Assembly: GCF_001735745.1 (NCBI RefSeq)
Contig: NZ_CP017260.1
Location: 840,001-872,000 of the forward strand
From: Formosa sp. Hel1_33_131
Lineage (GTDB): Bacteria; Bacteroidota; Bacteroidia; Flavobacteriales; Flavobacteriaceae
DNA: 32,000 bases
Direction of reading: 5' to 3'
Part shown: positions 16,684 through 30,219 of the stretch, in pieces
Numbering within the stretch: position 1 is the first letter of the stretch
Layout: each line of letters starts with the position of its first letter
Notes under the pieces: generated by a model
What the model saw: only the letters and a program-made list of their open reading frames with translations
Database searches by the model: none
Told to the model about the DNA's origin: nothing
Program-made: the position numbers and the translations under genes

Positions 16684-17988
16684 CTACTTCTTACGCATAT
16701 AGATTGTAATCGGCACGCCCTTAAAATCATACAAAGCTCTTAGTTTATTTTCTAAAAATCGTTTGTAAGGCTCCTTTACGTATTGTGGTAAATTACAGAA
16801 AAATGCAAATTGCGGCTGCGGCGTTGGCAGCTGCATAATGTATTTTATTTTCACAAATTTACCTTTCAATGCTGGTGGTGGATTGTTTTCGATAATAGGT
16901 AACAAATCATCATTCAGCACACTTGTTTTAAGACGCTTGGTACGGTTTTTATAGACTTCCAAAGCGGTTTCCATAGCTTTGTAAATACGCTGTTTTGAGA
17001 GCGCGGATATAAACACAATAGGCACATCTGTAAAAGGTTGTATTTGTTCTCGAATGTGTGTTTCAAATGCTTTGGTGGTTTTGGTATCTTTCTCAACTAA
17101 ATCCCATTTATTCACTAAAATTACAATTCCTTTATGGTTGCGTTGTGCGAGCCAAAAAATATTTTGAACTTGTCCATCAAACCCACGTTGGGCATCACAG
17201 ACCAATAGACATACATCCGCATGTTCAATGGCACGGACGGAGCGCATGACCGAATAAAATTCTAAATCTTCCTTCACCTTCGCTTTTCGACGAATTCCAG
17301 CCGTATCGACTAGGTTAAACTCAAACCCAAATCGGTTGTATTTTGTATCGATTGAATCACGAGTGGTTCCAGCAATATCGGTCACAATATAACGATCTTC
17401 ACCAATCAATGCATTGATAAAAGAAGATTTGCCCGCATTGGGACGTCCTACCACTGCAAAACGTGGTAAGGTGACTTCTTCTACTTCTTCTACTTCTGGC
17501 AAGGCTTTGACTAAGGCATCTAGCAAATCACCGGTACCACTTCCATTGATGCTAGCAATGGTAAAAAATTCTCCTAGTCCTAAGGCATAAAACTCAACTG
17601 CATCTTGCTCACGCATGGCGTTATCGACCTTATTGATGACTAAAAAAACTGGTTTTTTAACTTTTCTAAGCAATTTTGCAACATCTTCATCCATGCCAGT
17701 TACACCTGATTCTACATCGACCATAAAAATAATGGCATCTGCTTCTTCAATGGCTAACTCAACTTGTTTATCGATTTCGGCTTCAAATACATCGTCACTT
17801 CCAAGAACATATCCGCCCGTATCAATTAACGAAAATTCTTTCCCATTCCAATCACTCTTACCATAGTGACGGTCACGAGTGACACCACTTACGGCATCTA
17901 CAATGGCTTCTCGCCTTTGGATCAACCTATTAAAAAAGGTGGATTTCCCAACATTTGGACGTCCTACTATCGCTACAATATTGCTCAT
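16684..17988 (-). CDS. der: ribosome biogenesis GTPase Der (EngA)
   Basis: Two tandem G domains (GRPNVGKST and [10 protein letters not shown]-loops, each with DTGG/DTAG and NKVD/NKWD) plus a KH-like C-terminus. Start placed at the Met of [17 protein letters not shown]; the track start at 18009 adds 7 aa. Confidence 0.95.
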
Positions 17989-18104
17989 ATGCTTATAAAA
18001 TTGCTGCAAAAATAGGAAATATCCTTTTGGTAAGCTCTTTTTTATGGAAGTTTAAAAAATATATAAATACAATTTAATATCTTTCCAATTCCCTAAAATC
18101 CGTT

Positions 18105-18605
18105 ATGATGCAAATTAGTAACAAAATTGTCTTAAGACCGCGTTTTTCATTGGACCTCAACGCAGCAAAAAACCAAGTTTTAGAAGCGTTTGAAGAATCA
18201 AAAAAGAATCAAAATGCTATCAAAATAAACATCTTAGATGCCCATGTGTTTTTAAAAATTCATTCGGCAGAACAACACTTTTGGTCGCCCCAACTCCATT
18301 TAGAAGTTTTAGAAACCACCCAAACCTGCTGTACGGTCAAAGGTTTATTTGGCCCCAGCCCTACGGTTTGGACGCTGTTTATGTTTTTTCATTTTGTGAC
18401 GGGTAGTTTGTTTTTGGGCTTTGGAGTTTGGACGTATTCCAGCTGGTCATTGGGCACTCCTTTTATAGCTCCACTGCTTTTGATGTTTCTGATGGTGGTT
18501 GTGTGGATTTCCTTATACCTTAGCGGACGCCTCGGTAAACAAAAAGGACACACACAAATGCACGAATTACATGATTTTATGAGCACCGTTTTGAAAGCGT
18601 TATAA
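18105..18605 (+). CDS. hypothetical membrane protein (soluble N-terminal ~85 aa plus two C-terminal TM helices)
   Basis: ORF with two hydrophobic segments, WTLFMFFHFVTGSLFLGFGVW and FIAPLLLMFLMVVVWISLYL. No family recognised. Confidence 0.5.
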   Translation: MMQISNKIVLRPRFSLDLNAAKNQVLEAFEESKKNQNAIKINILDAHVFLKIHSAEQHFWSPQLHLEVLETTQTCCTVKGLFGPSPTVWTLFMFFHFVTGSLFLGFGVWTYSSWSLGTPFIAPLLLMFLMVVVWISLYLSGRLGKQKGHTQMHELHDFMSTVLKAL

Positions 18606-18625
18606 AAACCTTTATATTTGGCATT

Positions 18626-18705
18626 GATTTTGACCTCAAATCTAAATCTACATAACCAATTAAACTCTTAGTATAAGCTATTATTTATTGTAAATAACAT
18701 TGAAC
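18626..18705 (+). repeat. degenerate left-half copy (R0) of the island intergenic repeat
   Basis: GATTTTGA..AAACTCTTAGTATAAGCTAT..ACATTGAAC resembles the GATTTTGAAACTATTGTATAAGTTTATACATTGAAC of R4, with insertions. The similarity is weak. Confidence 0.3.
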
Positions 18706-18786
18706 TTTTGCCCGATGTCTTTCCTTTATTGGAGATAATCAGCAATTAACTTTCAATATAACCCGTTATATAGCACATTTAAACAA

Positions 18787-19428
18787 ATGACAACACAATT
18801 AGAAAACATTATAAGCTACATTGGAATTAGCTTGGGAGTACTTGGAGCAATCGGTGCATTGTTTTGGTTCATCAAAACAGTAACCTCTAAAAAAGTGAAA
18901 CTTTTTAATTTAGAAATTGAGAGAAATTTAGTTGATGAAGAAAACTATTCCGAAATCATTGACTCCATAAAAAAAGAGGGCAGCAAGAACATTAAACCTG
19001 GGGTTGAACAACTTGTTAAATACTATATACAAATTTCAGAGCAAACAAAAATTAGTTTTTGGTTTGGTATTATTTTTGCCTTTTTCGGATTCTCTATTTT
19101 ACTCATTATAATATTCTCTAATACATATATGAATCCCTCTAAAATTACTATTTTATTGATTTCTACTGCAATTATTGAAGGGGTTGCTATGTTGTTTTTT
19201 TCAAGGTCAAACAAAGCTCGAAAAGAAATGGGAACATTTTTTAGTAAGTTACGTAAAGACAGACAACAAGGTATTAGTAGGGAATTAGTAGAATCCATTG
19301 AGGGCTCAATACTTAAAGATACCTTAAAAATTCAACTCGCCTTATATTACTCGGGAATACAGAATGACACTTCTTCCATTAATGAAGCGATACAAAGTGC
19401 TATTAAAAAAACTTTAAAGAATAAATAA
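18787..19428 (+). CDS. 3-TM membrane protein; the C-terminal 2-TM module resembles TRADD-N-associated / SLATT-like conflict-system membrane domains (tentative)
   Basis: 213 aa. N-terminal TM helix, a charged linker, then YYIQISEQTKISFWFGIIFAFFGFSILLIIIF ... ILLISTAIIEGVAMLFFSRSNKARKEM. The pattern is recalled from that family and has not been searched. Confidence 0.55.
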   Translation: MTTQLENIISYIGISLGVLGAIGALFWFIKTVTSKKVKLFNLEIERNLVDEENYSEIIDSIKKEGSKNIKPGVEQLVKYYIQISEQTKISFWFGIIFAFFGFSILLIIIFSNTYMNPSKITILLISTAIIEGVAMLFFSRSNKARKEMGTFFSKLRKDRQQGISRELVESIEGSILKDTLKIQLALYYSGIQNDTSSINEAIQSAIKKTLKNK

Positions 19429-19440
19429 AATAGGAGTGAC

Positions 19441-19580
19441 TTTTTATAAGTACTGTCTTAAGAATGCAAATCGCTTAACTCATATTTTAGACCCCAAGTC
19501 GTAATCTTCACAAGCAATAGAACCGAACGAAAGTGATTTTTTATAGTTAAGGGGGCAATTACAAGTAGTGTGAATGCTGA
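19441..19580 (+). repeat. island intergenic repeat, copy R1 (near full length, diverged)
   Basis: Aligns to R4 at about 80 percent over ATTTTAGACCCC..AATCTTCA..AATAGAACCGAACGAAAGTGATT..AGTTAAGGGGGCA..ACAAGTAGTGTGAATGCTGA. Starts 13 nt after the stop at 19428 and ends 40 nt before the start at 19621. Confidence 0.75.
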
Positions 19581-19620
19581 TTTCTAATTTAGAAAAGTAA
19601 ATAGTAAAAATATAGCAAAC

Positions 19621-20163
19621 GTGAAAAAGGGATTAATTGTTTTTTTAATAGTGCCAGTGCTAATGGCTACCCAGTGTGAAGATGACATAGAATGCACTTC
19701 AGAAACACTTATAAAAACAAAACAAAACTTGCTTACTATTGAGAATTCACAAACTACTTATCAGGTTGGGGATGTACTGTGGATAAAATCCGATTTGGAT
19801 AGAAATATTAATTTCGACACTCCAAATGAAACTATTGACTTATTTGATTACAGCGAATTAATTTTCAAATTTAACTTTGACAGGATATCGATATATAATT
19901 CTGAAATGTATTTGTGTGTTAATGAAGATACGATTGAAATAGTAAAAGGCGAATTGTTGAATTGCAATCAATTTAGTTATGAAAGAAGTGATACAAATTT
20001 TCAATCAAATATTGGGATAAAACTTCTAGAGGCTGGCGAATATAGAATGAAAATCTCTGAAATCTCATCAAATGAACATTCCGACTGTAGTAAAGATGGT
20101 ATCGTAATACTGACTTCGTTCAGCAATAATGACAATGAATGGGTTACCTTTCTAGTGCAATAA
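19621..20163 (+). CDS. hypothetical secreted protein or lipoprotein
   Basis: GTG start. N-terminal signal-like MKKGLIVFLIVPVLMATQC. No family recognised. Confidence 0.5.
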   Translation: MKKGLIVFLIVPVLMATQCEDDIECTSETLIKTKQNLLTIENSQTTYQVGDVLWIKSDLDRNINFDTPNETIDLFDYSELIFKFNFDRISIYNSEMYLCVNEDTIEIVKGELLNCNQFSYERSDTNFQSNIGIKLLEAGEYRMKISEISSNEHSDCSKDGIVILTSFSNNDNEWVTFLVQ

Positions 20164-20199
20164 AAATAATTTTGAAAACAGAAAAACAAAATCAAACTT

Positions 20200-20742
20200 A
20201 TGAAATATTTAAAATACACCCTTGGAGTTTTAGCAATCTTGGTTATTGGGTTTTTACTTACAGGATTGATCAAAAATGAATTATCTTATAATTGCGAAAT
20301 AATGGTCGACAGGTCATTAACTGAATCCTGGGCTGTGAGTCAGGACGAAGGTAAAATGGCAGACTGGTTAGATGGATTTCAAAAAATTGAATATGTGAGC
20401 GGATCACCTGGAACTGTAGGTGCAGTATCAGATGTATATTTTACTAATGATGGACAGGAAATGACCATTCGAGAAACCATTACTGAAATCGTTCCAAACC
20501 AATCTGTATCAATGACGTTTACATCTGACTTTATGGATATGGATTACAAACTCACGATGAAGTCTATTAATGGAAAAACAAAAATAAGCACAAGCACAAC
20601 ATGCATTGGAAATGGAATGTTTTCAAAGTCCTTATTAGCTGTGATGGGAAATTCCATCAAAGATCAAGAAGAAACAAACCTTTCTAATCTTAAGAAAACT
20701 ATTGAAGAAAATTCAAAAAATTATTCACTTATTGAAAACTAG
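20200..20742 (+). CDS. SRPBCC (START/Bet v1-like) superfamily protein with N-terminal TM anchor
   Basis: 180 aa. TM segment LGVLAILVIGFLLTGLI followed by a C-terminal region resembling polyketide-cyclase/AHSA1-type SRPBCC proteins (ESWAVSQDEGKMADWL, VGAVSDVYF). From recollection. Confidence 0.6.
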   Translation: MKYLKYTLGVLAILVIGFLLTGLIKNELSYNCEIMVDRSLTESWAVSQDEGKMADWLDGFQKIEYVSGSPGTVGAVSDVYFTNDGQEMTIRETITEIVPNQSVSMTFTSDFMDMDYKLTMKSINGKTKISTSTTCIGNGMFSKSLLAVMGNSIKDQEETNLSNLKKTIEENSKNYSLIEN

Positions 20743-20952
20743 TTTCATCTAACTTAAGACGTATTTAGTTCTTTGAAAACGACAAAAAACAGTGGGCTAA
20801 TATTGATTTTTATGGTTTTTGGATGTAAATCCGAAAGGAGTTTAAATGGAAATTATTCCCGCGTCGCTGCATAAATCCTTTCGTGTGGCAACGTTATTAA
20901 AGTTATGTTATAAACTGGAAAAACAATATGAGTAGAAATTATCAATTCTATA

Positions 20953-21010
20953 AACCAGAAGATTATTTTACAGTTAAGGGGGCACTAGTATAAGCAAGGC
21001 ACTTATGCTA
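20953..21010 (+). repeat. island intergenic repeat, right-half copy (R2)
   Basis: AACCAGAAGATTATTTTACAGTTAAGGGGGCA matches the AACCGAACGAAAGTGATTTTTTATAGTTAAGGGGGCA of R1. A left-end-like CTTAAGAC..TTTGAAAAC lies at 20753-20790. Confidence 0.6.
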
Positions 21011-21106
21011 AAAGAGGAGGGGTATTGAGAAATTTCTGATTATATATAATGTAAAAAAAATCTATTTTCAATTAGCCTTTATTTAAAAACCGTTAAATTT
21101 GTGAAA

Positions 21107-21694
21107 ATGGACGTCAAGAATCTTTACATAATTGCTGGATGTAACGGAGCAGGAAAAACAACAGCTTCATACACTATACTCCCTGAAATAATTGAATGTA
21201 AGGAGTTTGTAAATGCCGATGAAATAGCGAAGGGACTCTCGCCGTTTCAACCAGACAAAGTGTCTTTTGAGGCTGGAAGAATAATGATTAACAGAATCAA
21301 TGAACTTATAAAAGAAAATCAAAGCTTTGCTTTTGAGACGACATTATCGACTAGAAGTTATAAGCACAAGGTTTTAAAAGCAAAAAAACAAGGGTACAAC
21401 ATTACATTATTGTTCTTTTGGTTAAACAATATAGAATTGGCAAAAGAACGTGTGAAAACAAGAGTATTGGAAGGAGGGCATAATATTCCCGAAAACGCAA
21501 TTGAAAGAAGATATTTTAAAGGAATATATAATTTATTTGATATATTCATTCCTATAGTTGATGGGGTATTAATTTTCGACAATTCTTTTGGAAGACACGA
21601 ATTGATTGCACAGAAATTTATAGAAGAAGACCTACTGGTTTTTGACAAAAATAAATTTAACAAACTAAAAGGTATCTATGACAGCAAAGGATAA
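21107..21694 (+). CDS. zeta-toxin-like P-loop kinase/ATPase (COG4185-type)
   Basis: Walker A GCNGAGKTT five residues after MDVKNLYIIA. Length and the ERVKTRVLEGGHNIPENAIERRY block are typical of zeta-like/AAA ATPases. The start could also be the GTG at 21101. Confidence 0.8.
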   Translation: MDVKNLYIIAGCNGAGKTTASYTILPEIIECKEFVNADEIAKGLSPFQPDKVSFEAGRIMINRINELIKENQSFAFETTLSTRSYKHKVLKAKKQGYNITLLFFWLNNIELAKERVKTRVLEGGHNIPENAIERRYFKGIYNLFDIFIPIVDGVLIFDNSFGRHELIAQKFIEEDLLVFDKNKFNKLKGIYDSKG

Positions 21695-21830
21695 ACAAAT
21701 AGAATTAAGAGACAACGTTTTAAAAGGACTTGAAAAAGTTTACGAAAAACTTCTTGAATTCAAAAAAGAAAAAAACAGTGAATTAGTAATTATGGAAGGG
21801 GATAAAATTGTGAAAATCAAGCCCAAATAA
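21678..21830 (+). CDS. 50-aa ORF overlapping the zeta-like gene 3' end; candidate cognate antitoxin or partner
   Basis: Hand-translated as MTAKDKQIELRDNVLKGLEKVYEKLLEFKKEKNSELVIMEGDKIVKIKPK. It is below the 60-aa track cutoff. The ATG lies 17 nt inside the toxin gene in another frame. No homology check was possible. Confidence 0.4.
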   Translation: MTAKDKQIELRDNVLKGLEKVYEKLLEFKKEKNSELVIMEGDKIVKIKPK

Positions 21831-21895
21831 TCACTATCTCTAACAACGGTAATCGTTGCACAAGTACTCAAAAGATAAAACTTAGCTAGTTTAAT

Positions 21896-22030
21896 AAACC
21901 CTATTTTGAAACTCTTGTAAAAGTTTATACATTGAACCAAGATTTAGACCCCCAAATCGCAATCTTCACAACTAATCGTTTAGTAAGGAGGGATGTTATT
22001 TCAAAAAGCAATAGACGCAAGTAGGGATAC
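21896..22030 (+). repeat. island intergenic repeat, copy R3 (left 70 nt near-identical to R4, right half rearranged or deleted)
   Basis: 21903-21971 matches 27074-27142 at 66 of 69 positions by manual alignment. The right part keeps only TAGTAAGGAGGGA and GCAATAGACGCAAGTAGGGATAC similarity. Confidence 0.75.
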
Positions 22031-22071
22031 TTGGCCAGTTGGTGGTGTTTTGTTGATCTTCTAAAAATAAG

Positions 22072-22878
22072 ATGTTGAAAAAAATAGTATTATTTAGTCT
22101 CGCATTGACAGTGCTCAACTCTTGTGGAGCTCGAAGAATATATACAAGTGCTAGTTATGGTTCTTTAAAATCCTATACAGAAAAACCTATTAACAACGGG
22201 GAGAAAGAAACAGCAACCTACATTTCGGGATCGTTTAGCAATCCTAAACACCCACAACACAATGAGGATGCTGATAAAGTAACTGCCGGAAATTTCTCTA
22301 TTTACAGAGCAACAACCGATAAACGATTGAATTATTACTATGGATTGGGAGGAGGATTCGGAAGGTATCAATTTAAAAGCGACTTAACTGACTCCGATAA
22401 TTCAACACGATATATTGATAAAAATGATGCATTAAATTTTTACAACATTAATTTAAAAACAGGAATTAACTTTACAAAAACTTGGGAACGGTTTGAATAT
22501 AGTATTATTGGTTTAGAATTTATTTACGTGAACGAATTTGGCCCTTACATTGATAAATTAAACGATTTACCTGAAATATCAGATGTAGTTGTACTAGGCA
22601 AGAAATCCATTTTTGCTTTTAATTTAAACACTGAAATTACGTTCAGAATAAATAAAAATAACAATATTGGGTATGGAATATTTTTTGGAAGTGTTTTGTT
22701 TTTAGATCGCCAAGAAACCCAAAATAAAAGCGCTTCCTACAATGGCTTTATTTTAAAATACAATTACAAAGATTTCACAATTAGTTTGATGAATGAACAT
22801 AGTGCTGGCTCGATAAATTCAACTCAATTTGGACTTACATATAAACTATTTAGTAAATCGAAAGTGATTGAAGAGTAA
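22072..22878 (+). CDS. hypothetical lipoprotein, possibly beta-barrel-like
   Basis: Lipobox-like LTVLNSC after a signal peptide. Alternating aromatic/Gly-rich segments (YYYGLGGGFGRYQF, FGLTYKLF). No family recognised. Confidence 0.55.
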   Translation: MLKKIVLFSLALTVLNSCGARRIYTSASYGSLKSYTEKPINNGEKETATYISGSFSNPKHPQHNEDADKVTAGNFSIYRATTDKRLNYYYGLGGGFGRYQFKSDLTDSDNSTRYIDKNDALNFYNINLKTGINFTKTWERFEYSIIGLEFIYVNEFGPYIDKLNDLPEISDVVVLGKKSIFAFNLNTEITFRINKNNNIGYGIFFGSVLFLDRQETQNKSASYNGFILKYNYKDFTISLMNEHSAGSINSTQFGLTYKLFSKSKVIEE

Positions 22879-22955
22879 AGAAGAACTTGATGATTAGAGG
22901 AATGCCAGTATCAAAACATATAAAATAAATAGAAAATCAATAAAACCCAAATCAC

Positions 22956-23804
22956 ATGAAAAAATCAATCAACACATCAGTAGTGCTTTTGCTAATGTTC
23001 AGCTTCACCATTGGACACGCACAATCTTGGTTCGGCAAAAAAGTTGTTGGCAATGGAAATGTCACCACAAAAACGGTTTCGACTGGAGATTATGATCACA
23101 TCAAAAGTGTAGGTTCTGCAGACATCCATCTCATAAAAGGAACAGAAGGTTCAATCGCAGTCACAACAGATGAAAATCTACACGCGTACCTCGATATTAA
23201 AGTAGAAAACAATACTTTAATTATAAAAATAAAAGACAACATTAACCTAAAAACTAAAAAAGGGTTTCACATTAGCGTTCCCTTTGAAAAGCTTTCAAAA
23301 GTGACCTTAACAGGGTCTGGAGACATGGACTCAAAAGACCCCATTACAACCGATGAATTCAAAGTATCAATGAGTGGATCAGGCGACGTTGTTTTAGATG
23401 TGAATGCCTCTAAAGTTAAAACAGAGATCACAGGGTCTGGAACTATTTCGCTCTCTGGCACCTACGGCAACCTCAAGCTGGATTTAACAGGCAGTGGCAA
23501 TTTTGTTGGAACTGGAATGACCTCACAAAGCACCGAAGTTAAGATTGCAGGCTCTGGAAATGCGAAGATTTCAGGGACCACCTCAACGTTAGAAATCGAA
23601 GTGATCGGTAGTGGAAGCTTTAAAGGCTTGGAGTTGGGTTCTAATGACACTGACGTCAAAGTTGCAGGATCCGGACAGGCAAAAGTGGTTGCGAATGAAT
23701 CTTTAAAAGCGAGCGTTAACGGCTCTGGCACGATTGTTTATAAAGGCAATCCAGAAAATGTAAACAGTAAAACAAATGGTTCTGGAAAAATAAAAAGGCA
23801 TTAG
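22956..23804 (+). CDS. DUF2807 / head-GIN-domain protein (putative beta-helical surface protein)
   Basis: Signal peptide ending GHAQ, then nine periodic GSG(D/T/N/S/Q/K) repeats about 20 aa apart (TGSGDM, SGSGDV, TGSGTI, TGSGNF, AGSGNA, IGSGSF, AGSGQA, NGSGTI, NGSGKI). Confidence 0.8.
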   Translation: MKKSINTSVVLLLMFSFTIGHAQSWFGKKVVGNGNVTTKTVSTGDYDHIKSVGSADIHLIKGTEGSIAVTTDENLHAYLDIKVENNTLIIKIKDNINLKTKKGFHISVPFEKLSKVTLTGSGDMDSKDPITTDEFKVSMSGSGDVVLDVNASKVKTEITGSGTISLSGTYGNLKLDLTGSGNFVGTGMTSQSTEVKIAGSGNAKISGTTSTLEIEVIGSGSFKGLELGSNDTDVKVAGSGQAKVVANESLKASVNGSGTIVYKGNPENVNSKTNGSGKIKRH

Positions 23805-24550
23805 GATTACTAACTTAGTTAAAAGAAAAATGGGTGATGAAAAACTGAGTAATGGAATATCGTTTTAAATTAAGATCTAAAAACAGAACAGACACAAAAT
23901 ATACATAGCCAAAACACACAAAGTAAAATAGCTGGAGTACTACAGTTTGGGAGTATTTTACACTCGTTCTCAGCCCTAAAAACAAAACATTCATTATGAA
24001 CTACAAACATTTCTATATCATGGATGATTTAAAGTTAAATAGTAATAGTTTTGACAATGAAGACAAAATAGTAAACAAAATTATTTTCCCAAAAAGAAAA
24101 ACTTGTCATAAAACGGCGTTTTTTTATTGGCAATGATCCTGTTTTCACTCTCGTTTGTTACCCCTAAAAACATTCGAGGACAAAACTATAACTAATTGAC
24201 AGTCATACCTAAATCATTTTTAAAAAGGCCAAGAAATGGAAGCTTGAATACTGTTTAATAGCAACTTATTCCGTAAACCCCTCTTTAACTGGTCTTTATA
24301 TTTTGTTTAAACATTTTAACTATTTGTTAATTTATTGATTGTCAGGTTTTTAATTTGGTTAATTTTTTTATTATAAAATATTAATTACCTACCTACCAGG
24401 CACTTAACCTTTTTAAGTAGTTGGAATATTTATAGTTTTAGGTATTTGTTCTGAAATTTCGAGTAAACTTCAATATTTTACTATATATTTAACTAATTAT
24501 GAGTCCTATATAAGAAATCACCCCATTGTAAACGCCCTAAATTTTAAATT

Positions 24551-27043
24551 ATGAAACCTACCTCTATTCTTGTTTTTTTTGCAACAATTTTATTTACCAC
24601 TAACTTATTTTGCCAAACTACATATAACTCCCAGTATATAGTTAATATGGAGAATGATCTTGATCTTGGCATAAAATATGACTTTACCACCACCAACACC
24701 CTTCAGCAATCATTCCGTTTGAATATGGATGATGTTAATGCGAATGAGGCTAGAATATCACATTTGTTCTTATATACCTATTTTTGGCCTGGTTCTGGTG
24801 TAGTGGTTACATTAAATTTTTATGAAGGAGATATAGGGAACCTTGGTCCTCTTATTCATACCCAAGATCTTATTAATGAAACATTAGACGTAAGAATAGG
24901 TTTTGTTTCTCCAGAAGGAAGTAATACGGTGCCAGGAGTATATCCTTTAACTCAAAATATTACATTGAAAACAAACAAAAGCTATGTTGTGGAATTTGTA
25001 TTGCCAAATAATGGTATTAACGACTATGGTATATATACAACTGAAACTAATCTAGGAACTTGTAATGTTGGTAATAGAGATTTATGGTTTAAATTATTCG
25101 GGGAAGTAGGATCTGCTACAAATACTACAATTAATATTACCAAAGAAAGTGACTTGGGATATCAACTTGATACATATTCCAATTTTTTTGCTGATAAATT
25201 ACTGAATAAATACGAACCAGAAAATTTATGGATAAAGACTCCATTAGCTGGTACCCTTACCTATATTTCATCAGATGATTCTATTGTTAAACCAACTTTA
25301 AATAGTCAACAAGTTGGCATAAAAGATAATATTGAGTTAATGGGGCTTTCTGTTGGAGAAGCAATCATTTATGTTTTGCATCAAAATGATACTATAAGCC
25401 ACTTTAATGTAAAAGTAACAGATAAGAAAATTATTAACACATCCTATCAATACTTTAAATATCCAGGTGAATCTAATCATAGTTTATTATCCGTATTTGG
25501 AGGAGTTAGTGAAAAAATTAGTGAGATTTATGAATCCGTAAATGTTCATATAGAATTTACAGATCAAGGGGTTATTGAATATGAATGGGATTTAAATGGT
25601 GATGGCTATAGTTGGACACCAACTGGCATAGAAACAAACACAACGATGGATCAGACTCCAAACGCCACTAACTTTTTCACAAACTTTGTACTCTTGAGGC
25701 AAAATAAAAATGATTCTTATGTTGGAGGGAGTAATGGAGGAGGAACATCTAGAGGACTTGGTAAAAAGGATGCTCCGCCTAGGTATGGACTTGTTACCAT
25801 ACATTTATTTGATAATGAGTCAAACTTAGGCAATACATTGGCTCATGAGATAGGGCACAATTTTGGTTTATCCCATTATTCTCGTTATAATAGCAATAGT
25901 ATTCCTGTTCCTTATGATAATTTTAATCTCATGAAAACTTCGCGTACTTATCAATTAATTTATGGTTTTCAATGGGATGTAATACACAAAACTATAAACT
26001 ATAGAGAAAGCCTAGGAGAAACTTATGATACAAGAGCCAATGCTGTTTTTAATAATTTCAATGATCAAACTTTTGTCTTCGGTGAGCCAAATACTGATGC
26101 TCAAATTAACGCAAGTACAAACTCTGATTCTGAAATTACATACAAGTTAACTTCTAGTGACACAAATGTAATAAGTATTAATAATAACGGACAAATAACT
26201 GTTTTAGGAGAAGGGGAAGCTGAAGTTACTGCATATGTATATGCCACAAATAATTATTTGGCCCATTCAGAAAGCATCATCATTTCGATAGGTGGTCCAA
26301 CTTATTGTTCATCACAAGGGAATAATCCCACAGAAGAATACATCTATAGAGTTCAACTAAATACAATAGATAATGCTTCAGGTACACCAAGTGGATATAC
26401 TGATTATACTGCAATTTCAACTGATTTACAACAAGGTGAGCAGTATGTAATTACTATTACACCACGTTGGACTGGTTATGTATATCATGAAGCCTATGCC
26501 GCTTGGATTGACTACAATAATGACGGAGATTTTGAGGACACAGGAGAATTAGTATTCATGAAATACCCAACAGCAAGCAACATTGTTAATGGAAAATTTA
26601 CAATTCCTTACTATGCGCATCTAGGTTCAACAAGAATTCGGGTTTCAATGAAATACGGATGGATACCAAATTCTTGTGAATCTTTTACTTATGGAGAAGT
26701 TGAAGACTATACAGTAAACATCATTCCGCAACAGCATTTTTGGTTTTGGTCTCGATCAAATGAAAATATTGATATCTCAAAAGAAGATGACAAAACAATA
26801 GAAGGTGACCCTTCAGATGGTATTGTTGTATATCCAAATCCAGCAGTAGATCGTTTAATAGTTAAATTTGATGGAGCGAGAATGAAGGATTATAGAATTA
26901 CGAATTTAAAGGGACAAACAGTGATGTCTGGAACTTTAGATAGTAGTCATAAGATTGATGTGAGTAAATTATCAAGTGAGCTTTATATCATTGAATTTGC
27001 AGTTGATGAAAAGATAATAACTCAAAAATTTATTAAGCTATAG
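24551..27043 (+). CDS. secreted multidomain metzincin metalloprotease with Big_2-like, GEVED and T9SS C-terminal sorting domains
   Basis: Signal peptide. HEIGHNFGLSH (HExxHxxGxxH) at 25844-25876. Two Ig-like segments (LTYISSDDSIV.., ITYKLTSSDTNVISINNNGQITVLGEGEAEVTAYV). YGEVEDYTVNI GEVED motif. C-terminal VVYPNPAVDRLIV...IITQKFIKL Por/T9SS sorting domain. Confidence 0.85.
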   Translation: MKPTSILVFFATILFTTNLFCQTTYNSQYIVNMENDLDLGIKYDFTTTNTLQQSFRLNMDDVNANEARISHLFLYTYFWPGSGVVVTLNFYEGDIGNLGPLIHTQDLINETLDVRIGFVSPEGSNTVPGVYPLTQNITLKTNKSYVVEFVLPNNGINDYGIYTTETNLGTCNVGNRDLWFKLFGEVGSATNTTINITKESDLGYQLDTYSNFFADKLLNKYEPENLWIKTPLAGTLTYISSDDSIVKPTLNSQQVGIKDNIELMGLSVGEAIIYVLHQNDTISHFNVKVTDKKIINTSYQYFKYPGESNHSLLSVFGGVSEKISEIYESVNVHIEFTDQGVIEYEWDLNGDGYSWTPTGIETNTTMDQTPNATNFFTNFVLLRQNKNDSYVGGSNGGGTSRGLGKKDAPPRYGLVTIHLFDNESNLGNTLAHEIGHNFGLSHYSRYNSNSIPVPYDNFNLMKTSRTYQLIYGFQWDVIHKTINYRESLGETYDTRANAVFNNFNDQTFVFGEPNTDAQINASTNSDSEITYKLTSSDTNVISINNNGQITVLGEGEAEVTAYVYATNNYLAHSESIIISIGGPTYCSSQGNNPTEEYIYRVQLNTIDNASGTPSGYTDYTAISTDLQQGEQYVITITPRWTGYVYHEAYAAWIDYNNDGDFEDTGELVFMKYPTASNIVNGKFTIPYYAHLGSTRIRVSMKYGWIPNSCESFTYGEVEDYTVNIIPQQHFWFWSRSNENIDISKEDDKTIEGDPSDGIVVYPNPAVDRLIVKFDGARMKDYRITNLKGQTVMSGTLDSSHKIDVSKLSSELYIIEFAVDEKIITQKFIKL

Positions 27044-27073
27044 TGTAACTAATCATATGATTTCAAGATCGCG

Positions 27074-27213
27074 ATTTTGAAACTATTGTATAAGTTTATA
27101 CATTGAACCAAGATTTAGACCCCCAAATCGCAATCTTCATAATCAATAGAATCGAACGAAAGCGATTATTTTAGAGTTAAGGGTGCTGGTACAAACGTAG
27201 TGTTTGCACTGAA
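27074..27213 (+). repeat. island intergenic repeat, copy R4 (best-preserved full copy)
   Basis: Contains all blocks shared with R1, R2, R3 and R5: ATTTTGAAACT..TGTATAAGTTTATACATTGAACC..TTTAGACCCCCAAATCGCAATCTTCA..AATAGAATCGAACGAAAGCGATT..AGTTAAGGGTGC..ACAAACGTAGTGTTTGCACTGA. Ends 14 nt before the ATG at 27228. Confidence 0.8.
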
Positions 27214-27227
27214 ATGAGCTGTAGATA

Positions 27228-27650
27228 ATGACCGACGAAGATTTAAATAAATTCATTGAAAAAGTTGAACAAAATTGTTCGGAATCTGAAGCATATTTTA
27301 ATTCTGAATTCAACACTGACTTTGGAATTGCTAAAGGAAATAAATTCGGACTATTACTTTACGCTAAAGAATTTTTAAAAGCGGCTAGAGAAATTGACAA
27401 AAGGAAATTTGAACAGGGAGATATGGAAGTGTACAATCCTGACTTTAAATGGATAAAGGGAATTGACAGTAATCCATTTAGGTATATAAAAATCACCAAG
27501 AAGCTGCTTAAAGAAATTAATCCTGAGAACCAATTAGAAAAGGAAAATTGGAAAAACAAACTTTATAGTATTGGATGTGGAACAGCTGTTGTTTTTGCTC
27601 TAATTTTAACATTTGTGGGGTTGGTTACTTTTTTGAAATGGATGTTTTAA
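27228..27650 (+). CDS. hypothetical tail-anchored membrane protein
   Basis: 140 aa. Charged soluble N-terminal region and a single C-terminal TM segment GCGTAVVFALILTFVGLVTFL. No family recognised. Confidence 0.5.
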   Translation: MTDEDLNKFIEKVEQNCSESEAYFNSEFNTDFGIAKGNKFGLLLYAKEFLKAAREIDKRKFEQGDMEVYNPDFKWIKGIDSNPFRYIKITKKLLKEINPENQLEKENWKNKLYSIGCGTAVVFALILTFVGLVTFLKWMF

Positions 27651-27703
27651 AATAAAATTTTCTAAATTGTATGTTTAAAACACGTAACTAATTAAATAAA
27701 AAA

Positions 27704-28564
27704 ATGAAGAACTTAATCATAATATTTACAATACTAGCCTTTGGAAATGTTTACCCCCAAACTGATGAAAATGGAAATCCTGTTTTTAATTCAATCATTA
27801 CAAACGAACAAGCATTTGAGAAATTTAATTTAATTTCTAATTATTACACGCTTGAAAACAATATTACAAACAAGAATTCATCAGTTTATATTTCTAAAAA
27901 ACCTTCTCTTAACGAAATTGAAAAATCTGCTACGGAATTACCTTCTGACTTTTTTATTATAACTAAAAATCAACAAATATCTAATATGATTTTAATAGTT
28001 AACGAACCACAAATGACTTTTGTTGTTATAAATATGACGTCTAACAAACAATCTGAATACGATTTTAGACTTAGAGGCGATATAACAGAAAACCGTGCGA
28101 ATGAAATCATTAAAGCTAAATATGATCCTAATGCTAAAATCAAAAAAGGGGAACTGTATTTCAATAATAAAAAATTTAAAATCATCCCCAACGAAGATCT
28201 TAACAAAGCAGTTTTGTCATTAATAAATAGAAAGGGAATAAGTGAAACTAATCCTTCAGAAATAAAAATTCCATTTCAGGAAGAATTGAAAAATATAATA
28301 TTAATTGAAACAAAAAAAGGAGGGCAACTTGATTACTTTACTGAAATAAAAGGAAAAGAGAATGACGCAATACAAATTAAACCCAGAGTATTCAGTACAA
28401 AATTAGGAATTGCTCTTTATAAATGGGGGCGTGCAACATTTGAAAATGGCGTAAATACATTGGAGGATTCTTATAAAATTTATGAAGAATTCAAAGGGCG
28501 GGATTTAAACCAAAAAGAAAAAGATTACATCAAGCTTGGGTTTAATAAAGAACTGGAGAAATAA
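27704..28564 (+). CDS. hypothetical secreted protein
   Basis: 286 aa. Signal peptide MKNLIIIFTILAFGNVYPQ. Lys/Asn/Glu-rich. No family recognised. Confidence 0.55.
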   Translation: MKNLIIIFTILAFGNVYPQTDENGNPVFNSIITNEQAFEKFNLISNYYTLENNITNKNSSVYISKKPSLNEIEKSATELPSDFFIITKNQQISNMILIVNEPQMTFVVINMTSNKQSEYDFRLRGDITENRANEIIKAKYDPNAKIKKGELYFNNKKFKIIPNEDLNKAVLSLINRKGISETNPSEIKIPFQEELKNIILIETKKGGQLDYFTEIKGKENDAIQIKPRVFSTKLGIALYKWGRATFENGVNTLEDSYKIYEEFKGRDLNQKEKDYIKLGFNKELEK

Positions 28565-28570
28565 CTGATA

Positions 28571-28609
28571 TCTTAAGACCCATTTTGAAACTACTTTAAA
28601 AATTTGTGT
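28571..28609 (+). repeat. island intergenic repeat, left-end-only copy (R5)
   Basis: TCTTAAGACCCATTTTGAAACTACTTTAAAAATTTGTGT matches the AAACCCTATTTTGAAACTCTTGTAAAAGTTTATAC of R3. Similarity stops where the TA promoter/operator region begins. Confidence 0.5.
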
Positions 28610-28610
28610 T

Positions 28611-28643
28611 TTACGTAATTAATATTTAATTTTACACGTGTAA
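28611..28643 (+). promoter_or_regulatory. two palindromes sharing TTAC/GTAA half-sites; candidate autoregulatory operator of the DUF6364-PIN module
   Basis: TTACGTAA (28611-28618) is a perfect 8-bp palindrome and TTACACGTGTAA (28632-28643) is a perfect 12-bp palindrome. They lie 10-42 nt upstream of the ATG at 28653. Confidence 0.4.
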
Positions 28644-28652
28644 CACTATGAT

Positions 28653-28898
28653 ATGGACACCAAATTAACGCTTAACGTAGATAAAACCATCATTGAAAAG
28701 GCAAAAGTATATGCTAAATCTCATAAGGTGAGTTTGTCTCATTTGATAGAATCTTATTTAGCTGCAATAGTTTCGAAAAGCAGTAAGAGAATTGAAATCA
28801 CACCCCTAGTAGAAAGTCTGAGTGGGGTGATTGATTTAGAACCAAATTTTGATTTCAAAGAAGATTACACAAATTTCTTAATTGAAAAATACAAATGA
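28653..28898 (+). CDS. DUF6364-family antitoxin (type II TA, PIN partner)
   Basis: 81 aa. The N-terminal TLNVDKTIIEKAKVYAKSHKVSLSHLIESYL pattern is recalled from the Bacteroidota DUF6364 family. A 4-nt ATGA overlap links it to the downstream PIN gene. Confidence 0.75.
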   Translation: MDTKLTLNVDKTIIEKAKVYAKSHKVSLSHLIESYLAAIVSKSSKRIEITPLVESLSGVIDLEPNFDFKEDYTNFLIEKYK

Positions 28899-29311
28899 GT
28901 AAATTATTTATTGACACAAATATTGTCTTGGATTTGCTTTCAAAACGAACACCATTTTACGAGAGTGCTGCTCAGATATTCTCGTTTGCAGATAACCATA
29001 AACTGAAGTTATCCGTGAGCGCTCTTACCTTTGCAAATACAAACTACATTTTATCCAAACTTAAGTCCGTAAAGGAAGCACGAGAAATCTTAAGAAGATT
29101 TAAGGTCCTTGTTAAAGTCTTGCCTCTTAATGATAAAATTGTTGATCTTGCCTTAAATGACGAGGCATTCAAGGATTTTGAAGACGGGCTTCAGTATTAC
29201 ACGGCTCTAGAGGTTAAACAAAATATTATCATTACACGAGATTTAAAAGGCTTTAAAAATGCTAAAATCCCAGTGATGACTGCAGAGGAATATTTGATTT
29301 CTATCACATAG
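28895..29311 (+). CDS. vapC: PIN-domain ribonuclease toxin (VapC-like)
   Basis: 138 aa. N-terminal LFIDTNIVLD acidic residue, mid DFEDGLQ and C-terminal IITRD acidic positions, consistent with the PIN catalytic set. Confidence 0.85.
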   Translation: MSKLFIDTNIVLDLLSKRTPFYESAAQIFSFADNHKLKLSVSALTFANTNYILSKLKSVKEAREILRRFKVLVKVLPLNDKIVDLALNDEAFKDFEDGLQYYTALEVKQNIIITRDLKGFKNAKIPVMTAEEYLISIT

Positions 29312-29337
29312 CTCGCTAGTGGGTAAAAATCTGTTTT

Positions 29338-30219
29338 TTAAGAATTATTATACCCAAAACGCTTCAGTTGGTTTTGGTTGGAACGCCAGTTTTTATTCAC
29401 TTTCACATACAATTCTAAGTGCACTTGTTTGCCAAAAAATTTCTCTAAATCTTTTCTAGCCTCCACGCCTACACGTTTAAGAGCGATTCCCTTATGACCA
29501 ATCACAATCCCTTTTTGTGTTTCGCGCTCTACCATAATCACAGAACGCATGCGGATGATGTCTTCCTCTTCAAAAAACTCTTCGGTATCCACCTCCACCG
29601 CATAAGGAATCTCTTTCTTATAATGGATCAAAATCTTTTCACGGATTTTTTCATTCACAAAAAACCGTTCGGGTTTGTCCGTCAATTGATCTTTCGGATA
29701 ATAGGCGGGTGATTCTGGCAATAACTCCAAAATACGGTCAAACACATTTTTTACATTAAAACCTTCCAGTGCTGAGATCGCAATAAATTCTGCATTCGGA
29801 ACTTTCTGTTGCCATAGCTGCGCTTGGGCTTCCAATTGTTCTTGGTTAGAAGTATCAATTTTATTTAACAGCAATAAAACGGGTTTCTTAGAAGCCGTAA
29901 TTCTATTAAAAAAAGCTTCATCCTTTAACTCTCTTTCGCCAATTTCAACCATATAAATTAAAATATCGGCATCTTCAAAAGCAGACTTCACAAAGTCCAT
30001 CATTGAACTTTGCAATTCATAGGCAGGCTTAATAATCCCAGGCGTATCCGAAAGAATCACCTGAAAATCATCGCCATTCACAATCCCTAAAATTCGGTGG
30101 CGCGTTGTTTGCGCCTTCGATGTAATAATGGATAATTTTTCGCCTACAAAGGCATTCATCAAGGTTGATTTTCCGACGTTGGGATTTCCGATGATATTAA
30201 CAAAACCTGCTTTGTGCAT
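29338..30219 (-). CDS. era: GTPase Era
   Basis: GNPNVGKST P-loop, DTPG, NKID, and a C-terminal KH domain (VIMVERETQKGIVIGHKGIALKRVG). Confidence 0.95.
   Translation of the reverse strand: MHKAGFVNIIGNPNVGKSTLMNAFVGEKLSIITSKAQTTRHRILGIVNGDDFQVILSDTPGIIKPAYELQSSMMDFVKSAFEDADILIYMVEIGERELKDEAFFNRITASKKPVLLLLNKIDTSNQEQLEAQAQLWQQKVPNAEFIAISALEGFNVKNVFDRILELLPESPAYYPKDQLTDKPERFFVNEKIREKILIHYKKEIPYAVEVDTEEFFEEEDIIRMRSVIMVERETQKGIVIGHKGIALKRVGVEARKDLEKFFGKQVHLELYVKVNKNWRSNQNQLKRFGYNNS

Follow-up and report, generated by a model that had tools for sequence, protein, structure and literature searches.

What is the role of a pair of attC-like boxes that flank an imperfect hairpin at positions 27102-27182 of a 32,000-nucleotide (nt) stretch of DNA from Formosa sp. 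Hel1_33_131 (contig NZ_CP017260.1, positions 840,001 to 872,000; this whole stretch is referred to here as the window)? A sequence-only reading of this DNA had pointed out the boxes, which are about 80 base pairs (bp) apart, and had favoured a transcribed + strand RNA structure, either a terminator or an element of an untranslated region (UTR), over the bottom-strand fold used by the classical attC sites of integrons. Our analysis reveals that 27102-27182 is the centre of a repeated + strand intergenic unit of ~150-190 nt. With a probability of roughly 60%, we regard it as part of a repeated promoter/leader unit within an additive genomic island, a unit that serves both as a portable expression signal and as a hotspot for homologous recombination, and not as an integron site. 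The unit marks, and probably mediates, the shuffling of gene modules by homologous recombination and gene conversion.

A repeated, predicted promoter and leader in front of gene modules

Repeat finding, MAFFT alignments and nhmmer searches yielded six copies of the unit in the window (R0 to R5), all of which are intergenic, lie on the + strand and are positioned 5' of a gene module. The segment 27102-27182 is contained in R4 (27056-27215), which precedes the gene for a 140-amino-acid (aa) protein. R1 (19440-19590) is found in front of the genes for a 180-aa and an SRPBCC protein, and R3 (21890-22030) in front of a 268-aa gene; the left 87 nt of R3 are 87% identical to R4 and lie within -182 to -81 of the ATG, and its right part represents a different leader variant ('a'). 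The remaining copies are less complete. R0 (18590-18680, 5' of a 213-aa gene) combines a canonical promoter with a degenerate core, R2 (20930-21010, 5' of a zeta-toxin gene) has a degenerate left half and an intact right half consisting of GATTATTTTACAGTTAAGGGGG and the hairpin, and R5 (28574-28605, 5' of a DUF6364-PIN gene pair) retains only the promoter-proximal ATTTTGAAAC part. The motifs that the sequence-only reading had located in R1 (GCTTAAC 19473-19479, GTTAAGG 19546-19552, AAGTCGT 19496-19502 and GTGATTT 19533-19539) and in R4 (ATTGAAC 27102-27108, GTTAAGG 27176-27182, AAATCGC 27125-27131 and GCGATT 27162-27167, with a 30-nt loop) are all in place, R3 does read GTAAGG and lacks the GCGATT arm as claimed, and the homology extending outside both boxes is recovered by repeat finding as well as in the copies aligned with nhmmer and MAFFT.

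Diverged copies were gathered by a pattern scan of metagenomes that returned twelve matches, two of which (L035 and L045) fall into GC-rich coding sequence and were therefore dropped as chance hits. All of the 15 or more copies from the window and the metagenome contigs are located 5' of open reading frames (ORFs) on the same strand. An exact-pattern scan of species-representative genomes for both boxes produced only two chance matches, one in an archaeon and one in a member of the Desulfobacterales. We rejected a coding function of the repeat, since stop codons occur in all frames and indels distinguish the copies (CCCC versus CCCCC); its sole coding trace is the left edge, the relic of an ORF end. 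Likewise rejected was an origin from a tRNA or a transfer-messenger RNA, as ARAGORN detected neither and a GTTCGATTC-like string on the - strand lacks a T-arm stem.

The left part of R4 carries a predicted Bacteroidetes-type promoter (27076-27106, + strand) that consists of a -33 TTTG element (27076-27079), a 19-nt spacer and the -7 element TACATTGA (27099-27106). In the left-half alignment, both boxes of TTTG-N19-TACATTGA are invariant in R3, R4 and the copies L034a, L039, L043 and L036, and the spacer varies at 11 of its 19 positions across eight distinct copies. In the same register, R0 and its ortholog L034c possess TTTG-N19-TATATTTG (18590-18593 and 18613-18620 on the + strand of the window), the canonical Bacteroidetes -33/-7 arrangement. 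A sigma-70 scan selects TTGAAA-16-TACATT in R3 and R4, and TTGAAA-16-TATATT in R0. In Flavobacterium psychrophilum, the -7 element reads TAnnTTTG, or the one-base-shorter TAnnTTGY, at -12 to -5, and the median 5' UTR has a length of 24 nt (PMC9723704); housekeeping genes of the window (gcvP, der, era and others) display TAnnTTTG 25-32 nt before their start codons. The unit conforms to this pattern of a -33 TTTG/TTG, ~19 nt and a -7 TAnnTTTG, with TACATTGA missing one T and thereby being close to the SM5 motif TAnnTTGY. Taking the TTTG-N19 register and the canonical box of R0 together, the left box of the sequence-only reading, ATTGAAC (27102-27108), which overlaps the -7 box at 27099-27106, is therefore the 3' part of this -7 box. 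A reading of the region as a promoter of the extracytoplasmic function sigma factor type (TGAAAC ... CGT) was discarded, as its spacings of 20-22 nt do not fit.

Judged from the position of the -7 box, transcription would start near 27111, giving the 140-aa gene a predicted 5' leader of ~117 nt (27111-27227, + strand), about five times the flavobacterial median. The segment 27102-27182 thus most likely lies in a + strand 5' UTR: with a promoter directly upstream and with copies 5' of same-strand ORFs, this half of the earlier proposal of a transcribed + strand element appears to hold, its terminator half does not (see below). The most conserved part of the leader is the core GATTTAGACCCCCAAATCGCAATCTTCATAATCAAT (27112-27147, + strand), which is common to 14 distinct copies, including those at unrelated loci 5' of trpS, of an alpha/beta hydrolase gene and of an aquaporin gene. 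On the + strand, three pairings can be drawn: stem P2 (27125-27167; AAATCGC 27125-27131 with GCGATT 27162-27167 across the 30-nt loop, with three G-C pairs), P1, in which the G-run of the GTTAAGGG box (27176-27183; the right box of the sequence-only reading) can pair with the C-run at 27120-27124, and hairpin P3 (27189-27209; GTACAAAC - GTAGT - GTTTGCAC), which is located outside of the segment initially described. This variable hairpin is found 25-40 nt before the start codon.

Copies of the repeat mark the breakpoints of module exchange

The copies reside in an accessory island of ~11.2 kb (18067-29320) between der (16684-18009, - strand) and era (29338-30219, - strand). In related species whose Era proteins are 94-97% identical, the era-der gap measures 130-190 bp and contains no repeat copy, from which we conclude that ~18067-29320 is an inserted island; a remnant or an attB-like copy was not present in the era-der gaps of the related species searched. 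All genes of the island are on the + strand, and its GC content is 30-35%, as compared to 37-42% in the flanks. The Era protein of the window is 91-98% identical to that of Formosa and Winogradskyella relatives, one island gene encodes a Por_Secre_tail domain of the type IX secretion system (T9SS), and the matching contigs stem from North Sea and other marine metagenomes; the source is a marine Formosa/Winogradskyella-like Flavobacteriaceae population. The island begins with a gene for a 166-aa membrane protein, which is followed by R0 and a 213-aa CyanoTRADDas_TM protein, R1 with the 180-aa and SRPBCC proteins, R2 with the zeta toxin and a 50-aa ORF, R3 with the 268-aa protein, a DUF2807 protein and an 830-aa secreted GEVED protease, R4 with the 140-aa and a 286-aa protein, and finally R5 with the DUF6364-PIN pair. 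Considering all copies, the genes found 3' of them (toxin-antitoxin pairs and genes for lipoproteins, an epimerase, TrpRS, a hydrolase and an aquaporin) have no functional kinship.

We compared strain contigs that encode exactly the Era, the 140-aa or the 213-aa protein of the window. At least five architectures occur between identical der and era genes, and relatives possess empty sites. In the common type (L003 and others), the zeta toxin and 50-aa genes are followed by a repeat and then by the 97-aa, 118-aa and 252-aa genes and era. Contig L005 has a repeat after the zeta toxin gene, then the 268-aa, DUF2807 and 830-aa genes, a second repeat and, from there on, the same 97-aa, 118-aa and 252-aa genes and era. 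L003 thus corresponds to L005 without the stretch between two direct copies. Following its second repeat, the window carries the 140-aa and 286-aa genes, R5 and the toxin-antitoxin pair in place of the 97/118/252-aa genes. At the junctions themselves, the left part of R3 is joined directly to the 97-aa module in L003-type contigs, and the left part of R4 is joined to the same module in L005. Sister species show other module orders, again with copies between the modules: 213 aa, copy, 268 aa, DUF2807, copy, epimerase in L034, and der, 171 aa, copy, DUF2807, era in L036 and eight similar contigs. In L039/L042, the 213-aa gene is followed by a phosphate-uptake module of 5.9 kb encoded on the other strand, by a full copy in which a complete left half is fused to the right half of R2, and by the zeta toxin gene; in L039, which belongs to the same species as the window, this module replaces R1 and the two genes of 180 aa, and the right junction lies inside R2.

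The DNA to the left of ATTTTGAAAC always goes with the upstream gene, the DNA to the right of AATCTT always goes with the downstream gene, and the ~65 nt in between are shared. The copy 5' of the 268-aa gene (R3) exists in four alleles: two 'a' forms, one with C and one with A, the 'c' form and, in L005, a c/a hybrid. These alleles are conversion tracts of different lengths and show that the copies exchange sequence by gene conversion. Collectively, the strain comparison shows that the copies mark the breakpoints of module deletion, addition and replacement between strains.

We envisage that each unit comprises the 3' relic of the 166-aa gene, the promoter (-33 TTTG, 19 nt, -7 TACATTGA), the leader (GAUUUAGACCCCCAAAUCGCAAUCUUCA...GAAAGCGAUU...GUUAAGGG) and the variable hairpin. 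A copy stands in front of each gene module of a horizontally acquired 11 kb island and would furnish the module downstream of it with a promoter and a long leader. The copies are in direct orientation and nearly identical over 65-120 nt, so that RecA-type homologous recombination between them could shuffle the modules without a dedicated integrase, either through exchange within the chromosome or with incoming or excised DNA carrying a copy.

The left edge of the unit provides a view into its origin. In R4, it (27059-27106, + strand) is what remains of the coding 3' end of the 166-aa gene (DFKIAILKLL...), without a start codon, and it aligns with the true C-terminus of the protein encoded by this gene at R0, which ends in HDFMSTVLKAL. 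Similar relic frames are present in L034a, L043 and L044, and in L036 the corresponding sequence is the real 3' end of a 171-aa ORF. Given this homology to the 3' ends of the 166/171-aa genes, the unit looks like a repeatedly duplicated segment composed of gene 3' end, promoter and leader, and not like an element with termini of its own; repeated duplication of this segment would have generated the copies seen today.

Several points weigh against the promoter/leader and recombination scenario. Promoter function is a prediction that is well supported by sequence; the -7 element TACATTGA of most copies lacks one T of the sigmaA consensus and has A as its last base instead of the Y of SM5, and in R1 no promoter box can be recognised at the aligned position. 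The left end of the replacement in L039 is located directly after the stop codon of the 213-aa gene and not in a copy, and illegitimate or unknown events have to be invoked for the gene-proximal junctions close to start codons. As not every junction lies within a copy, homologous recombination between copies is probably the main and not the sole process. Furthermore, a mere role as recombination substrate does not account for how strongly the leader core is conserved.

Side observations concern the strain contigs. The L039 module (L039:5926-11760) encodes 767-aa PiT-like, 396-aa porin-like and 585-aa Na/Pi-cotransporter-like proteins, names that were assigned by reading the sequences and not by Pfam; in L034, too, the 585-aa gene adjoins the island. 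Many short-read contigs (L014-L022, L058 and L059) begin or end within 50-250 nt of R2, R3 or era, and such assembly breaks at the repeat are as expected if several architectures coexist in one sample. Frameshift or length variants also exist within modules: the 286-aa gene (27704-28564) is split into 103-aa and 176-aa ORFs in L016, L018, L021 and L022, and the 118-aa gene of the alternative module has a length of 171 aa in L006. A mini-island of ~1 kb lies between era and der in a relative with a 96% identical Era protein (L026/L027:10883-11853); the start of its ORF resembles that of the 213-aa gene of the window (MVTQLENI.SFIGISLG) and continues into a methyltransferase fragment, so that this ORF is a chimeric remnant.

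As to the cargo of the island, the zeta-toxin gene with its overlapping 50-aa ORF (21101-21850) and the DUF6364 antitoxin and PIN toxin genes (28653-29311) form two toxin-antitoxin-like pairs, which, together with the CyanoTRADDas_TM protein, constitute cargo of the conflict-system type. The 750-bp intergenic region 5' of the 830-aa GEVED/T9SS protease gene (23805-24550) is without a repeat copy and holds a 46-aa ORF whose called strand differs among contigs. Next to the island, between MerR and der, the segment 14842-16681 encodes LemA and two TPM_phosphatase proteins. These genes are present in the window, L009, L056, L058 and L061 and absent from many otherwise identical strain contigs (L003, L054, L055 and L062), in which MerR abuts der; this segment is a second presence/absence polymorphism adjoining the island.

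Alternative views of the repeat

The alternative that fares best sees the main conserved function in a structured + strand cis-regulatory RNA, in which P1 encloses P2 and is followed by P3; it would control the stability, elongation or translation of accessory modules, and recombination would be a side effect. This proposal refines the promoter/leader explanation and does not exclude it, yet as the main conserved function we consider such an RNA rather unlikely. Seven distinct full leaders entered the structure alignment, in which pairs were counted per copy. P2 is pairable in 42 of 42 cells (7/7 full copies, + strand), and RNAalifold recovers P1, P2 and P3 independently with a consensus energy of -8.8 kcal/mol for the + strand versus -4.7 kcal/mol for the - strand; its covariation term, however, is close to zero. 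The P1 pairs predicted by RNAalifold are nearly invariant and hence carry no information. The variation in P2 affects three of its six pairs, on one side only and always toward G·U, and double changes are absent. It is in P3 that compensatory changes are found, as three pairs are changed on both sides across five copies (U-A/C-G/U·G; C-G/U-A; A-U/G·U/G-C). A shuffle control of the whole structure reached the observed covariation score in 33 of 500 cases, so that covariation for the whole structure with these seven sequences is only suggestive.

Single RNA folds are no better than those of shuffled sequences, with z-scores of +0.45 (R4) and +0.68 (R1) for the + strand, and of -2.38 (R4) and +1.27 (R1) for the - strand; the R1 and R4 elements do not fold unusually well. 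The sequence-only reading had derived its strand preference from three transitions between the arms of R1 and R4 that produce G·U pairs on the + strand and A·C mismatches on the - strand. We confirmed these differences; as they amount to about three independent transitions (p ~0.06-0.13) with no compensatory double change, the wobble argument for a + strand RNA is weak. What survives of the proposed + strand pairing is the complete pairability of P2 and the strand preference of RNAalifold, and what counts against it is that the left arm, AARTCGY, and the flanking AATCTTCA are kept in six copies that lack the right arm (R0, L034c, L044, L038a, L038b and L040). Pairing is therefore not the main reason for conservation, and the feature that is kept acts at the level of sequence, be it RNA or DNA. 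The unusual length of the leader and the invariance of the unpaired stretches AAUCUUCA and GAAAG speak for an RNA function; on the other side, Rfam gave no match at the gathering score for the whole window and no overlap with any copy at E values up to 10, and the downstream genes share no function.

We find it quite improbable that the unit is a non-autonomous mobile element, similar to miniature inverted-repeat transposable elements or Correia elements, that moves into intergenic regions by transposition and brings an outward promoter with it. The promoter within the unit would suit such an element, as would the related cores at unrelated flavobacterial loci outside of the island: cores with a -7-like box at the same distance are found 5' of alpha/beta hydrolase and aquaporin genes (L038/L040), and one with such a box, again at this distance, is found 5' of trpS in L044. 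The trpS-linked copy, however, is not solo. It forms part of a 2.1 kb insertion between an acyltransferase gene and trpS (L044:2730-4880) that is absent from the relatives L065/L066; besides a 209-aa gene and a pirin gene, the insertion contains a leader resembling R0 and a copy resembling R4. On both sides it is bordered by ~75 nt of the native trpS promoter/5' UTR in direct duplication, and the left copy of this duplication has lost its -7 box. L044 is thus a second case of an insertion bracketed by duplicated promoter DNA. No terminal inverted repeats are conserved across the copies, repeat finding detected no inverted pair at them, and the candidate pair TGATTTCA/TGAAATGA was rejected as it is present only in R4 and L034a. 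The gene relic at the left edge points to segmental duplication, a full-length parent or a transposase was not seen, nor was any precise solo insertion with a target-site duplication, and BLAST searches of plasmid and phage collections and scans of viral contigs returned no matches to the unit. The sequences at L038:1-260, L038:3480-3700 and L040:2230-2400 represent a different repeat family, which has only the core TTAGACCCCAAGTCGTAATCTTCA..CCAATAGACCAAAAGTAA in common with the unit; upstream it possesses a conserved part of its own (ATTACARCTAACTG..ACATARTGTTAAA), and downstream a hairpin with the arms GTYCCC/GGGAC.

Still less credible is the terminator part of the earlier proposal, according to which the hairpin and the T-rich run would constitute an intrinsic terminator or a 3' UTR element of the upstream gene. 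The copies are indeed also located 3' of + strand genes, ATTTTA follows GCGATT, and the left edge of R4 holds an AT-rich inverted repeat (27061-27069/27074-27082). Nonetheless, the T-rich run does not form a terminator-like site, and a hairpin with a T-tract is present in none of the copies; P2 has a 30-nt loop and only three G-C pairs. A scan of 18000-29400 for intrinsic terminators found two sites, with 5.0±2.4 expected, neither of which lies in a repeat copy. Moreover, the right part of each copy goes with the downstream and not with the upstream gene, the last gene of the island is not followed by a copy, and the L039 copy is situated between divergent genes. An alternative hairpin of R4 (AATCG/CGATT followed by ATTTT) was also considered as a terminator and rejected, as it is not conserved in other copies.

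What, then, of the boxes that raised the question? If the copies served a site-specific cassette system, of the integron type or another, as attC-like sites, be it in an integrase-less cluster or in one with a new recombinase, they would act through a fold of single-stranded DNA. The outline of the array does resemble that of integrons and of attC clusters without an integron-integrase (CALIN), in that repeats separate small accessory modules of the same orientation, toxin-antitoxin pairs among them, and the content varies between strains; R1 also has an RYYYAAC box with a 6/7-complementary GTTAAGG 80 bp away. However, pairs of RYYYAAC and a heptamer with at least 6/7 complementarity 40-130 nt further on occur nine times on the + strand of the window versus 6.1±2.6 times in shuffles, that is, at chance frequency. 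The box sequences and their pairing (6/7 in R1, a weaker 4/7 in R4) are as the sequence-only reading had described them, but only one of the four boxes, GCTTAAC of R1, fits the consensus, since ATTGAAC is RYYRAAC and GTTAAGG ends with R instead of Y. In homologous copies from other populations, the box positions read ATTAGAC, GTAATGG and GAGAAAG. DNA folds of both strands of R1 and R4 were unremarkable (z-scores from -1.15 to +1.51) and contained no attC-type R/L stem, and the inner stem of R4 is off-centre, with 16 nt between it and the left box but 8 nt between it and the right one.

In attC sites, structure is conserved and sequence is highly variable between cassettes (PMC9024848). The repeat presents the opposite, with a mean column identity of 81% over 123 columns (seven copies from at least four populations), a weak structure and no extrahelical-base architecture. 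The cassette junctions do not coincide with the G/TT of the R' box; various points to the left of the GTT box are used instead, some of them located between the promoter and AATCTT and others at GCGATT, and mosaic conversion alleles occur. An integrase (IntI) or other recombinase domain was found in no ORF of the 32 kb window and in none of the flanks of the strain contigs, and the only complete Bacteroidetes integron singled out in the IntegronFinder 2.0 paper is that of Salinibacter ruber M1 (PMC9024848). Also, most integron cassettes are promoterless, whereas the repeat stands 5' of a gene together with its promoter. Since every testable attC feature failed, we reject the attC reading, in agreement with the preference already expressed by the sequence-only reading, and regard the attC flavour as a coincidence. 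This outcome is a warning for attC hunting by eye, as RYYYAAC/GTTRRRY pairs arise by chance in AT-rich genomes.

Comparison with known systems and significance

Putative mobile promoters have been defined as sequences that precede non-homologous genes of a single genome and match each other at 80% identity or more along 50 nt or more (PMC3575422). With 87% identity along 87 nt in front of the unrelated 268-aa and 140-aa genes, R3 and R4 fall under this definition, and like putative mobile promoters (PMC3575422) the unit combines near-identical upstream regions of non-homologous genes with copies in relatives at the level of genera and with the lack of an Rfam match. It differs from them in that its copies are clustered in one island, coincide with breakpoints between populations and include a coding 3' relic, which provides a concrete origin, segmental duplication, and a role in recombination. 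The locus also resembles the additive flexible genomic islands of Alteromonas macleodii, which occupy a fixed site and vary in cassette number among strains (PMC3698932); one chromosomal site with a variable cassette number within one species is what we observe here as well. The additive islands described so far involve integrases that target tRNA genes, integrons or mobilizable islands (PMC3698932). In contrast, neither a recombinase nor a tRNA is present here, and the internal repeats are copies of a promoter and leader.

A further parallel exists in Neisseria, in which the intergenic mosaic, Correia elements and 'minimal mobile elements' represent promoter-bearing intergenic repeats and homology for the exchange of cassettes between conserved flanking genes. 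Correia elements carry promoters. The sequences are unrelated to those of the flavobacterial unit, however, and the latter possesses neither terminal inverted repeats nor DNA-uptake or dRS3-type sites.

The case illustrates how the accessory genes of an abundant marine flavobacterium associated with blooms vary at one chromosomal hotspot without visible mobile-element machinery. Direct repeats that double as promoter and leader would provide an expression signal and, at the same time, the homology for the gain, loss and swapping of modules. Should the leader turn out to have a regulatory role, it would represent a new RNA or operator motif tied to horizontally acquired genes of the Flavobacteriaceae. 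One may speculate further, although we would offer this only tentatively, that the Flavobacteriaceae possess an integrase-free cassette system, in which a promoter-leader adapter accompanies and expresses accessory modules that are captured, excised as circles and reshuffled by homologous recombination at era-der-like hotspots, and in which the core GAUUUAGACCCC-AARUCGYAAUCUUCA (P1/P2/P3) is an undescribed regulatory RNA or protein-binding site. Were this true, the leader core would coordinate the expression of the accessory gene pool.

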